Origin: Alphaproteobacteria bacterium
GTDB lineage: Bacteria > Pseudomonadota > Alphaproteobacteria > Rickettsiales > JABCZZ01
Assembly (NCBI GenBank): GCA_013286285.1
Contig: JABDGA010000004.1
Span: forward strand, 1 to 59,430
Reading direction: 5' to 3'
DNA: 59,430 bases
The first letter of the stretch is position 1. Each line of letters opens with the position of its first letter. Positions 41,797 through 43,148 of this stretch are shown here, piece by piece. The position numbers and the translations under genes are program-made. The notes below the pieces were generated by a model. That model ran no database searches, was not told the DNA's origin, and saw only the letters and a program-made list of their open reading frames with translations.

Positions 41797-41938
41797 TCTT
41801 GTTGGCGCTTCAACCCCGCCACTAAGAACGTTTGCCGCTCACGACAGAGCGATTTTTTATGTCTGTAATTTGCAGGCGCTTAATCTCCTATGTCGGGAGT
41901 AGACCAAATATAATACCCGAAAGCAACGGTGTTGCGAG

Positions 41939-42877
41939 TCAAGCGGGAAGTTGCTGATAATAATCGCGCAGCATTGCATTAAGCTGGATAAGGAGCTTTC
42001 GCATGGCAGCGGTGATGGCTAGTTTAGCAGGTTTTCCTTGAGCGCGTAATCGGAGATAGAAAGGGCGTATAGCCGGATGGCAACGTATTGCGGTAAGGGT
42101 TGCCATGTAAAGCACACATCGCACGCTTTTCCTGCCACCGCGTATGTGACGTTGTCCCCGCATGGCTCCGCTATCATGATTCATGGGAGCGACGCCCACA
42201 AGTGCTGCAATCTGGCCTGGGCTTGCCTTACCTAGTTCTGGAAGCTCTGCAATCAAAACAGCAGCAGTGACTGCCCCGATGCCTGGTACATTGATGAGTT
42301 GCCGGTAAGGCGCAGCAAGAGCAGGCTGCGCTTTGACCAAAGCAGCAATAGCCCGGTTGAGGGTATCGATACGCTCTTCCAGCCAAGCCAGATGCGCTTC
42401 GATATCAGCACGCATGGTCGCGTGAAGCGTTGCTTGCAGGCGATCTTGCTCTTCAGCGTAGGCGTCCACTGTCTGCCTGCGACGCGTCACCAGCGCCGAC
42501 AGCTCAACCTGTACCGGCGTCATGGCAGGTGTAACGGGTGGCCGCAATGCAGCCGCATAGGCAGCAAGCGTTTGCGCGTCAATCTTATCCGTCTTGGCCA
42601 AGCGCCCTGATGCTTTAGCAAAATCGCGTGTCTGACGCGGATTGATACGCGCGACCACCAGTCCGGCGGCTTGCAGAGCAGCAGCCACTACCTGCTCGTA
42701 CATACCGCTTGCTTCTACCGCAATCAAATCGGGATGGTGTGGCATAAGCCATTCGATCATCACCCTACGGCCTGTTTCGTCATTAGAAAAACGCTGATAC
42801 ACCGAACCTGGCAAGATGCTTACATCCAGCCATTGCTTGGCAATGTCGATTCCAACAGTTATAAAGGAAGCACTCAT
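41939..42877 (-). CDS. IS110 recombinase/transposase
   Basis: GIDIAK, VEASG, KTDKIDA (DEDD), PGIG, HDSG catalytic Ser, AAMRKLL. Confidence 0.95.
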
Positions 42878-43031
42878 TCATGCCTCCGCCTAATATACGA
42901 ACGCGAAGTTCCCGCAACGGTTCGAGGAATGATGAAATGGGCGGCGGCTCTCGCTTGCGGACGCATATCGCTTGCTAGGGAAAACCGAGTTCACCGCCCG
43001 CACAAGGAGGACTGGCCAGCCCTCCTTGTGC
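42878..43031 (-). ncRNA. IS110 bridge RNA (5' stem-loop, target-binding loop, donor-binding loop)
   Basis: Hairpin 43000-43031; target loop 42939-42999; donor guides 42914-42921 and 42890-42896 match the element ends. Confidence 0.8.
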
Positions 43032-43148
43032 AACATCAAGCAATCTATCAATGCTCAAAGCTGCTTTCTACATATTAGGGGAATACACCATTCACGTTTC
43101 TTAGCGTGGGGTCTAAACTCCTGACACTTCAACATAGGAGAATAGACC

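Follow-up and report, generated by a model that had tools for sequence, protein, structure and literature searches.

An IS110-group insertion sequence with a readable bridge RNA in the hairpin of an sRNA-Xcc1-family leader RNA

IS621 of Escherichia coli is a described member of the IS110 group (Durrant et al., 2024, PMC11208160; Hiraizumi et al., 2024, PMC11208158; PDB 8wt6). In this group the left noncoding end is far longer than the right and contains a noncoding RNA, which in the IS1111 group is located in the right end instead (PMC11208160). The catalytic residues of the IS621 recombinase are given as D11, E60, D102, D105, and S241 (PMC11208158), and single and especially double mismatches are reported to be poorly tolerated by IS621 (PMC11208160). 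The RNA sRNA-Xcc1 corresponds to Rfam family RF02221 (Chen et al., 2011, cited in PMC12189769 and 10.1101/2025.06.18.660453). In a literature search at the level of titles and abstract openings, no IS110 target in sRNA-Xcc1, C4 antisense RNA, or isrK is described; Supplementary Data 2 of PMC11208160 (natural IS110 target motifs) may bear on novelty. The locus described here lies in a window of 59,430 nucleotides (the whole stretch of DNA analyzed; G+C 51.7%) and very probably represents an intact IS110-group insertion sequence, present as a single copy, whose left end encodes a bridge RNA of ~180 nt and which made a near-cognate landing in a member of a preferred multi-copy RNA-gene family.

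The element and its recombinase

41922..43078, minus strand: whole IS110-group element, 1,155 bp, with a CT core copy on either side (43078-43077 and 41923-41922)
41939..42877, minus strand: recombinase gene, 312 aa, RuvC-like DEDD domain and Tnp domain (domain matches PF01548 and PF02371)
41924..41930, minus strand: left donor sequence ACCGTTG at the right end (read from the sequence)

The ends of the element are fixed to a single base by an uninterrupted paralogue in the same assembly (G000:C7), in which positions 28476-28508 equal the right flank at 100% over 33 nt and continue directly into GGGGAATA; the join contains AG (= CT) once. Two homologues that are colinear and likewise uninterrupted, G003:C68 and G003:C57 of a same-genus genome, set the same ends, and the presence of one CT (AG on their strand) exactly at the join in the empty paralogue and the same-genus homologues indicates a short shared core and a scarless insertion. 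On the element strand, the element starts with CTAATATG and ends with ACCGTTGCT, flanked by TATTCCC-CT on the left and CT-TTCGGG on the right. An earlier, sequence-only reading of this DNA had proposed an IS110 element at 41922-43078 and had predicted TATTCCC-CT-TTCGG as its empty target; the paralogue and the homologues bear out the former, the latter exists as the uninterrupted paralogue itself, and all coordinates in that reading check out on the sequence of the window. The left end measures 201 bp including the core vs. 15 nt plus core for the right end (the noncoding stretch 41938-41924, between stop codon and core), and the long, noncoding-RNA-bearing left end that marks the IS110 group is thereby present in this element. 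One full copy was found in the 1.45-Mb assembly (53% complete). In the only public run that holds this stretch (probably the source sample; contigs only, and therefore uninformative on circles and empty alleles), neither a circle junction nor an empty-site form was found; loose ends at 41891 and 41923 in that run proved to be the C7 paralogue.

The recombinase matches PF01548 (E = 1.4e-22) and PF02371 (E = 4.2e-19), scores 219 bits on the equivalog NF033542, "IS110 family RNA-guided transposase" (cut-off 140), and aligns with the recombinases of IS621 (8wt6; E = 8.6e-43) and ISCro4 (9t56; E = 1.1e-42). Residues D11, E55, D97, D100, S236, and G237 align to IS621 D11, E60, D102, D105, S241, and G242; the aligned catalytic residues are invariant across 18 relatives, and the reading frame is open, with every catalytic residue present. 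The protein had been described as compact at 312 aa, a label that does not survive comparison with the 10 relatives listed (309–324 aa) and the solved IS621 chain (328 residues): its length is within the usual family range, and there is no evident editing-tool advantage over known orthologues.

The bridge RNA and its guides

43000..43031, minus strand: 5' stem-loop of the bridge RNA, perfect 14-bp hairpin (minimum-energy and centroid folds)
42883..43001, minus strand: bridge RNA core, with the target-binding loop module first and the donor-binding loop module after it (covariance model R1, 91.5 bits)
42977..42985, minus strand: left target guide (LTG) GTTTTCCCT, 7 nt plus core (6/9 vs. the occupied site, plus one G·U wobble)
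42954..42960, minus strand: right target guide (RTG) CCGCAAG (6/7 vs. the occupied site)
42953, minus strand: handshake base C, directly after the RTG (position in family alignment)
42914..42921, minus strand: left donor guide (LDG) ACCGTTGC (8/8; equals the element's last 7 nt plus core C)
42890..42896, minus strand: right donor guide (RDG) ATATTAG (7/7; reverse complement of core plus the element's first 5 nt)
42889, minus strand: handshake base G, directly after the RDG (position in family alignment)

The left end has the conserved fold of two internal loops, each closed by a stem and containing an inner hairpin, as indicated by covariation and by the R1 score. R1 matches once in the 59-kb window, at the bridge RNA core, where the 91.5 bits fall within the range of its 12 seed sequences (69–114 bits), and it matches directly upstream of the recombinase gene in 155/160 related loci. 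The exact donor-loop 14-mer gives chance matches only in viral contigs, and R1 has 0 matches in the 743 kb of these unrelated contigs that share a 14-mer, which served as a specificity control. Compensatory changes occur at 19/29 consensus pairs in the 12 seed sequences (three donor-loop pairs from RNAalifold were left out as likely spurious before model building); across 74 distinct sequences, 93.2% of cells are paired and 22/26 pairs are compensatory, vs. 33–49% paired when the partners are slid. The predicted fold of the left end has a free energy of -77.7 kcal/mol (z = -2.92; 2/200 shuffles as stable). The bridge RNA of IS621 architecture with a CT core that the sequence-only reading had recognized is upheld by this two-loop RNA, its R1 score, and strong family covariation; the fold likewise contains the 5' stem-loop that had been placed at 43000-43031, as well as the stem that closes the target loop.

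Each of the four guide segments occurs once in the element, at the coordinates listed above. When the left end is shuffled 20,000 times (mononucleotide shuffles), the donor 8-mer appears in 56 shuffles, the 7-mer in 153, and both in 0, and thus chance is excluded for the donor guides. Three other copies of ACCGTTGC in the window have contexts unrelated to the element. For the target guides, the LTG matches at 6 of its last 7 positions (6/9 overall), and one of its mismatches would form a G·U wobble with the bottom strand; the occupied site is non-Watson–Crick at 4/14 guided positions, namely left-target positions 1, 2, and 5 (the wobble) and right-target position 2. The four guide assignments made earlier are correct, in that they fall in alignment columns that track the flanks and ends over 109–131 related loci, and the matches claimed for the donor guides (8/8 at 42921-42914 and 7/7 at 42896-42890) and the target guides (LTG 6 of the last 7; RTG 6/7) were reproduced. 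The mismatch tolerance deduced from them stands in part: the mismatches are real, but tolerance is indistinguishable from guide drift or near-cognate landing.

Across related IS110 loci, the guide columns behave as guides. The RTG column matches core plus right flank at 7/7 in 90 and at 6/7 in 22 of 131 loci (7/7 in 81/2,620 permuted pairs), and the LTG loop matches the left flank at no fewer than 7/9 positions in 68/116 loci (137/2,320 when permuted); complementarity of the target-loop guides to the insertion site is therefore strong across the family, and partial in this copy (6/9 plus wobble, and 6/7). The left donor motif varies jointly in the right end and the donor loop of relatives (e.g., ACGGTTGC, ACAGTTGC, ACAGCCGC, and ACAGTCGC). 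Left ends were located by an RDG rule that uses a discontiguous match (last 5 nt plus first 2 nt, one wobble allowed) and succeeds in 116/156 sequences; it replaced an exact 6-mer of the RDG, which succeeds in only 33/156. The ends predicted from the donor guides yield elements of 1,100–1,301 bp in 109 loci, with CT, which the method did not impose, after the right end in 105 of them. At these loci, the base after the RTG pairs with donor position 7 in 107/109, and the base after the RDG pairs with target position 7 in 92/109.

A promoter is predicted at the junction that would be created by circularization:

41937..41942, minus strand: -35 box TTGACT of the junction promoter, overlapping the stop codon (would form only in the circle; predicted)
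43069..43074, minus strand: -10 box TATGTA of the junction promoter, weak (last base A, mostly T in relatives; predicted)

The geometry of this promoter is conserved in the family. In 65/100 computed circle junctions, the best-scoring promoter has its boxes at -19 (-35 box) and +4 (-10 box) relative to the core, at a spacing of 17 nt, and 68/100 junctions score at least 9/12, vs. 3/100 integrated left ends. The computed junction of this element scores 8/12, as its -10 box lacks the final T that is present in the commonest hexamers of relatives (TATCTT, TATGTT, and TATATT). In the integrated form, the left end yielded no promoter-like site on the element strand.

An sRNA-Xcc1-family RNA as the landing site

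41892..41923, plus strand: 5' part of the interrupted sRNA-Xcc1-family RNA, through AG (= CT core) (100% identical to G000:C7)
43079..43134, plus strand: 3' part of the interrupted RNA, 3' end approximate (from homologues; the HMM spans the join)
43149..43373, plus strand: 74-aa XRE/Cro-type helix-turn-helix gene led by the interrupted RNA (HTH_26)

The insertion point is the 3' border of the GAAA loop in an sRNA-Xcc1-family leader RNA; the copy splits this RNA and separates an XRE-type gene from the 5' part of the RNA and from any promoter upstream. When the empty site is computed, an HMM of RNA copies from other genomes (without G000) aligns to it through the join (E = 9.2e-11). On RF02221, which has a cut-off of 53 bits, the copies in this genome score 45.1 (the G000:C7 paralogue), 38.7, and 25.7 bits, all below the cut-off, and the colinear same-genus homologues score 56.2 (G003:C57) and 53.6 bits (G003:C68). 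Matches to RF02221 are present in 14/31 genomes including G000, with nine in the same-genus genome G003, two of them above the cut-off; there are none in 14 control genomes at the same E-value limit. The 74-aa gene matches HTH_26 at E = 6.5e-4 and 20.3 bits, under the cut-off of 22, and homologous genes of 75–76 aa follow both over-threshold sRNA-Xcc1 matches in G003. Other neighbors of the insertion are a tRNA-Ser, a SET-domain gene, a histidine kinase, and a lone 16S gene.

The target had been read earlier as a C4-like RNA of phage-type immunity, into dispersed copies of which the element would home. C4, isrK, and sRNA-Xcc1 are annotated within ~400 bp of each other in one Xylella genome (PMC12189769), every APSE phage has, according to a preprint, C4 and isrK RNAs, with sRNA-Xcc1 upstream of a gene in two, and the position of the RNA directly upstream of a small regulator gene resembles that of C4 upstream of ant. 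However, the C4 model (RF01695) has no match at the copies on C7, C59, and C49, its best score in the genome being 15.3 bits, elsewhere (cut-off 45), and the isrK model (RF01394) has no match at any of the genome's copies of the interrupted RNA; sRNA-Xcc1 is the family that they fit. No phage context was found among the neighbors scanned; in PHROGs, the XRE gene has no match, and its neighbors match just two families, both of unknown function. With a single insertion known, this reading of the target is very unlikely. Homing itself is plausible, resting on one insertion. The two uninterrupted RNA copies in the same assembly, one of them with an identical site, are empty, and none of the 108 other, more distant family members with predicted ends targets this RNA.

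By sequence, the occupied GAAA variant of the hairpin is a poorer fit to the guides than is a GCAA-loop variant (CCGCAAGGGAAA..). This 12-mer, which the sequence-only reading had put forward as the ideal target, is found at 12/12 in the homologous hairpin of G003:C57, a bona fide sRNA-Xcc1 match (56.2 bits), and G003:C18, a partial RNA copy recognized by eye, likewise carries the 12-nt core of the predicted site. Because a better-fitting GCAA variant exists in a same-genus genome, the copy is read as a near-cognate landing in a preferred RNA-gene family. Among 36 RNA copies, 12 are within 4 mismatches of the 14-nt guide-predicted site, always in the homologous hairpin (best copy G003:C57, 2 mismatches), compared with 196/7,200 shuffles (2.7%), an enrichment that is not fully independent of the element sitting in one such copy.

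Alternatively, the bridge RNA may be programmed for a different GCAA-loop palindrome of the REP kind in another host, such that the insertion is an off-target landing and the resemblance to an sRNA-Xcc1-like hairpin is a coincidence of short sequence. L014, the closest relative for which DNA was available (56% identity), also has CCGCAAG as its RTG, and its insertion site is a GC-rich GCAA-loop hairpin unrecognized by the sRNA HMM; this would be consistent with an off-target origin, as would the 4/14 imperfect positions of the occupied site and a report attributing about half of non-target IS621 insertions to half-matched substrates (10.64898/2026.08.31.748434). Chance sites are also numerous: there are 30 sites within 2 mismatches of the 14-mer in the assembly vs. 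12 for a reversed control pattern. A scan at this limit over five genomes is too permissive to inform alone; of ten such sites inspected, one is the partial RNA copy G003:C18, and the other nine have no sRNA-Xcc1 match at E up to 1. The exact 12-nt core in the homologous hairpin of a same-genus sRNA-Xcc1 copy and in G003:C18, together with the enrichment at the hairpin (with the dependence noted above), argues against an off-target landing, and we regard it as unlikely.

The distribution of the element bears on a further alternative, namely that it is an inactive relic that arrived once by transfer and is immobile now, with the target-guide mismatches representing drift since insertion. Two matching sites in the assembly are empty: that of the C7 copy, which is identical over the part that was read, and G000:C10:16010-16023, which matches at 13/14 and has no Rfam match at E up to 1. 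In 60 related genomes, relatives reach at most 51% identity (partial matches), and in 400 genomes of the class at most 47%. Recombinase relatives of 73–84% identity (P0002–P0008) sit on contigs of 1.3–1.6 kb; a single-protein scan of genome contigs with the recombinase found no relatives, alignment-based scans of metagenome and genome contigs gave up to 56% identity among the matches listed, and relatives reach at most 48% on viral contigs and at most ~51% on plasmids among the matches listed. The empty sites, the lack of close relatives in the related genomes, the single copy, and the weakened -10 box at the junction would all suit a relic, but the reading frame is open with all catalytic residues, the RNA scores inside the seed range, and the donor guides are still perfect against both ends, where drift would be expected too. 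Moreover, the assembly is 53% complete, and other copies may be unassembled. A relic is thus quite unlikely, and the near-cognate landing of an intact element is preferred.

A broader possibility, less likely than not, is that the target loop of an IS110 lineage has become adapted to the apical GNRA hairpin conserved in sRNA-Xcc1-family leaders, with the functional, multi-copy family of RNA plus XRE gene serving as a dispersed landing pad in place of the inert REP repeats used by other IS110 elements. If so, each insertion would uncouple a regulator gene from its leader RNA. Within the RNA hairpin, the 3' arm is complementary to the LTG and the 5' arm shares the sequence of the RTG; consequently, bridge RNA and target RNA could pair as RNAs and affect each other.

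Mode of action and comparison with known systems

The mode of action of the element is, by analogy, most likely IS621-like, and we infer circle formation, transcription, activity, and a preference for sRNA-Xcc1-family RNA. The element would excise as a circle joining ACCGTTG-CT-AATAT; this join would set the -35 box TTGACT 17 nt from the -10 box of the left end, such that the bridge RNA is transcribed. The donor loop would then hold the circle junction via ACCGTTGC and ATATTAG, and a tetramer of the 312-aa DEDD/Ser recombinase would exchange strands at the CT core. The handshake bases may assist, with the C after the RTG pairing with donor G7 and the G after the RDG pairing with target C7.

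The likeness to IS621 encompasses the RuvC-like DEDD and Tnp domains with the catalytic D, E, D, D, and S aligned; the long left end encoding a bridge RNA with 5' stem-loop, target loop, and donor loop; the CT core; left guides that read as the top strand and right guides that read as its reverse complement; handshake positions right after both right guides; an insertion that duplicates nothing beyond the core; and (predicted here) a promoter divided between the two ends, with the -35 box on the right and the -10 box on the left, that is united only in the circle. Unlike IS621, the RTG in this family comprises 7 contiguous nt rather than 4 (PMC11208160), the recombinase is distant (phmmer E = 8.6e-43 over residues 7–296), and the natural target is a hairpin within an RNA gene leading a protein gene, whereas IS621 targets a REP element.

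With respect to sRNA-Xcc1, the interrupted RNA and its paralogues align over the full model, with its conserved ..AAUACCCGaAAGGGGAAU.. hairpin at the center; same-genus homologues are above the curated cut-off; and the RNA is directly upstream of a small gene, as reported for integron cassettes (symE) and APSE phages (ORF6N gene). It differs in that the copies of this genome are under the cut-off, the downstream gene is of the XRE helix-turn-helix type, and neither integron nor phage surroundings were seen within the context examined. The C4 antisense RNA of phages P1/P7 (RF01695) is similarly a short structured RNA upstream of a regulatory gene and is annotated beside sRNA-Xcc1 matches in some genomes (PMC12189769), but its model matches no copy here. 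ISPpu10 of Pseudomonas putida (10.64898/2026.03.19.712850) is an IS110 element with multiple copies of one conserved stem-loop sequence as natural targets; there, the stem-loop is reported as an extra specificity determinant beside the guided site, whereas here the core is inside the hairpin, at the border of loop and stem.

Set beside these systems, the element is a well-documented natural example of a known IS110 type, with both ends set by empty sites and with four guides and both handshake bases readable. What sets it apart somewhat is where it landed: in a structured RNA gene, present in multiple copies in the genus, that serves as leader to a regulator gene, at a site occupied despite imperfect matching at 4/14 positions. 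If close relatives occupy the same RNA family, this RNA-gene family would join the known natural targets of IS110 elements and would provide a natural test case for mismatch acceptance by bridge recombinases.

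Element boundaries and recombinase

The IS110-group element occupies positions 41922-43078 on the minus strand and has a CT core. The ends are exactly those placed by the sequence-only reading, as evidenced by an uninterrupted paralogue on contig C7 of the same assembly (G000) and two uninterrupted loci, colinear with both window flanks, in a same-genus genome (G003). The C7 paralogue contains a 33-nt copy of the right flank (100% identity) and runs unbroken from right-flank into left-flank sequence; a single AG, which reads CT on the element strand, stands where the two flanks meet. 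Because C7 and the two G003 loci are uninterrupted, the element comprises 1,155 bp, flanked on either side by one copy of the core. The insertion is genuine, and an assembly artefact is excluded. One full copy is present in the assembly (1.45 Mb, 77 contigs, 53% complete).

Features of the element
41939-42877, minus strand: recombinase ORF, 312 aa, one ORF within 41922-43078
201 bp, 5' of the recombinase ORF, minus strand: non-coding left end
43031-43000, minus strand: perfect 14-bp 5' hairpin in the predicted fold of the left end
15 nt followed by CT, 3' of the recombinase ORF, minus strand: non-coding right end

The encoded protein contains DEDD_Tnp_IS110 (E = 1.4e-22) and Transposase_20 (E = 4.2e-19) domains, scores 219 bits (cut-off 140) against the NCBI equivalog model 'IS110 family RNA-guided transposase', and aligns with the IS621 and ISCro4 recombinases of known structure (E ~1e-42). 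Residues D11, E55, D97, D100, S236, and G237 align opposite the composite active site of IS621 (D11, E60, D102, D105, S241, and G242; PMC11208158; the deposited IS621 chain is numbered +2 relative to that paper), and all six are unchanged across 18 relatives.

Bridge RNA and guides

The left end folds better than shuffled sequence (z = -2.92), and its predicted fold includes, besides the 5' hairpin, a long stem closing the first internal loop. The RNA anatomy was tested independently using 160 loci encoding recombinase relatives (43-56% identity, among the matches listed). Twelve readily aligned upstream regions yield a consensus of two internal loops, each with an outer stem and an inner hairpin, and compensatory changes occur in 19 of the 29 predicted pairs in this seed alignment, which is free of model-fitting bias. 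A covariance model built from these regions (121 positions, 26 pairs) matches the DNA immediately 5' of the recombinase gene in 155/160 loci (77/80 and 78/80) and has a single match in the 59-kb window (42883-43001, 91.5 bits); there was no match across 743 kb of unrelated viral contigs. For 74 distinct sequences, in an alignment biased towards structure because it was fitted to the model, 93.2% of cells are paired, and in 22 of the 26 pairs both partners have changed; shifting the partners by 1-3 columns as a control leaves just 33-49% of cells paired.

Some related loci have two bridge-RNA-like matches on opposite strands, which suggests adjacent or nested elements.

Paired bridge-RNA-like matches in three related loci
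L053, 30-153 and 255-378: minus and plus strands
L098, 137-238 and 1240-1380: plus and minus strands
L059, 396-525 and 2544-2677: plus and minus strands

Four segments of the left end had been read as the left and right donor and target guides, and this assignment is borne out: when their alignment columns were used to predict the ends and flanks of other loci, they did so, in the case of the target guides far more often than permuted pairs. The right target guide column agrees with the core plus right flank at 7/7 in 90 and at 6/7 in 22 of 131 loci (7/7 in 81/2,620 permuted pairs), and the left target guide loop agrees with the left flank at 7/9 or better in 68/116 (permuted, 137/2,320), the ends in both cases being those located with the donor guides. 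A copy of the leading 7 nt of the left donor guide (at most one mismatch) lies just past the stop codon in 131/156 sequences, and the right-end motif varies by lineage in step with the donor loop. The right donor guide (last 5 plus first 2 nt) locates the left end in 116/156 sequences. Both ends were found in 109 loci, giving element lengths of 1,100-1,301 bp, and the two bases after the right end, not imposed by the method, are CT in 105 of these. The handshake rule (PMC11208158) also holds in most loci: the base following the right target guide is complementary to donor position 7 in 107/109 and to its own target in just 7, and the base following the right donor guide is complementary to target position 7 in 92/109 and to its own donor in 11. 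The direction of all these signals is unambiguous, and the counts overstate their statistical weight because related loci are non-independent.

Both donor guides of the window copy match at every position (8/8 and 7/7), a combination found in 0 of 20,000 left-end shuffles, and the handshake bases are C (pairing with donor G7) and G (pairing with target C7). Against the occupied site, the left target guide matches at 6/9 (left-target positions 1 and 2 are mismatched, and position 5 is a G.U wobble) and the right target guide at 6/7 (at right-target position 2, C faces T). This agreement lies in the lower middle of the distribution among related loci, and the mismatches exceed those that IS621 tolerated in screens (PMC11208160).

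The interrupted RNA and its gene

The target had been described as a C4-like, phage-type RNA. Neither part of that description is supported: C4 and isrK models match nothing at these copies, for which sRNA-Xcc1 (RF02221) fits, and nothing phage-like or integron-like was found among the scanned neighbours of the target RNA. The C7 paralogue gives a full-model sRNA-Xcc1 match (45.1 bits, cut-off 53; E = 1e-6) that takes in the conserved central hairpin. Two further sub-threshold copies occur in G000 and nine matches in G003; the two of these above cut-off are the loci colinear with the window flanks. Matches were found in 14 of 31 genomes (G000 counted) and in none of 14 control genomes at an equal E-value limit. 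An HMM built from other-genome copies alone spans the join of the computed empty window site (E = 9.2e-11) and has no match in the other 108 computed empty sites. In the target hairpin, the CT core lies where the GAAA loop meets the 3' arm.

Immediately 3' of the RNA, the window and both G003 loci have a Shine-Dalgarno sequence and then a 74-76-aa helix-turn-helix gene of XRE type; RNA and gene form a module that recurs in at least four copies in the genus; in the C59 copy the downstream homologue is cut to ~41 aa.

Copies of the module and genes neighbouring the window copy
41884-41923 and 43079-43373, plus strand: module, window copy
L005 (G000 contig C59), 1169-1396, minus strand: module
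L248 (G003 contig C68), 1260-1588, minus strand: module
L236 (G003 contig C57), 1501-1834, plus strand: module
41115-41204: tRNA-Ser
41318-41737, plus strand: SET-domain protein, 139 aa (PF00856, E = 4.4e-11), between tRNA-Ser and the interrupted RNA
43526-43605: terminator-like hairpin just downstream of 16S, weak match to leader families
43685-45172, minus strand: complete 16S rRNA gene

In the computed empty-site fold, TCTCCTATGT (41884-41893, just 5' of the RNA) pairs with the Shine-Dalgarno region ACATAGGAGA (43132-43141), and a comparable complementary pair is kept in both G003 copies (alignment read by eye); from this modelled pairing, the module resembles a leader for translational control. 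Because the 59-kb window contains 16S with neither 23S nor 5S genes, and the terminator-like hairpin lies just downstream, the rRNA genes appear unlinked. Two low-depth contigs (depths 13.6 and 8.3; records 3 and 5 for positions 41700-43300) of the public sequencing run that contains this stretch open with the RNA's 5' part (30 nt) and differ beyond it; depths in that run are 545-746 for contigs from this genome, and therefore rarer genomes or copies in the sample also have this part.

The target guides predict ..CCGCAAGGGAAAAC.. (RNA strand). The homologous hairpin on contig C57 of G003, CCGCAAGGGAAATA, differs from this only at the two outermost left-guide positions, and contains an exact match to the 12-mer predicted by the sequence-only reading. 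Copies of the RNA family lie within four mismatches of the predicted site in 12 of 36 cases, always at the homologous hairpin (shuffles, 196/7,200). The insertions supporting aimed targeting number one, and the identical site on C7 is empty. The best assembly match to the 14-nt predicted target (13/14; C10, 16010-16023) has no insertion and is surrounded by sequence unrelated to the RNA family. L014 (56% identity), the nearest relative among the matches listed, has an identical right target guide but is inserted in a different GCAA hairpin. We consider a preference of the element for sRNA-Xcc1-family RNA slightly favoured, and its plain anatomy close to certain.

Junction promoter and relation to known IS110 elements

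Circle junctions were computed for 100 relatives; in 65, the best-scoring promoter has its -35 box at -19 and its -10 box at +4 from the core, a spacing of 17 nt. TTGACA and TTGACT are the most frequent -35 hexamers, and TATCTT, TATGTT, and TATATT the most frequent -10 hexamers. A promoter score of at least 9/12 is reached by 68/100 computed junctions vs. 3/100 integrated left ends, in agreement with the published IS110 junction promoter (PMC11208160). The junction of the window element retains this geometry and scores 8/12 because its -10 box is TATGTA; in the integrated left end, the element strand yielded no promoter in a simple scan. On promoter geometry and scores, the element is predicted to be expressed, possibly weakly.

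All the defining features of IS110-group bridge elements that can be read from sequence are present, with circle formation and transcription as predictions. The element type is already known, and published covariance models assign a predicted bridge RNA to 85.7% of catalogued IS110s (PMC11208160). The sole unusual points are the four guide positions that match imperfectly and the landing site, within the structured leader RNA of a regulator gene.
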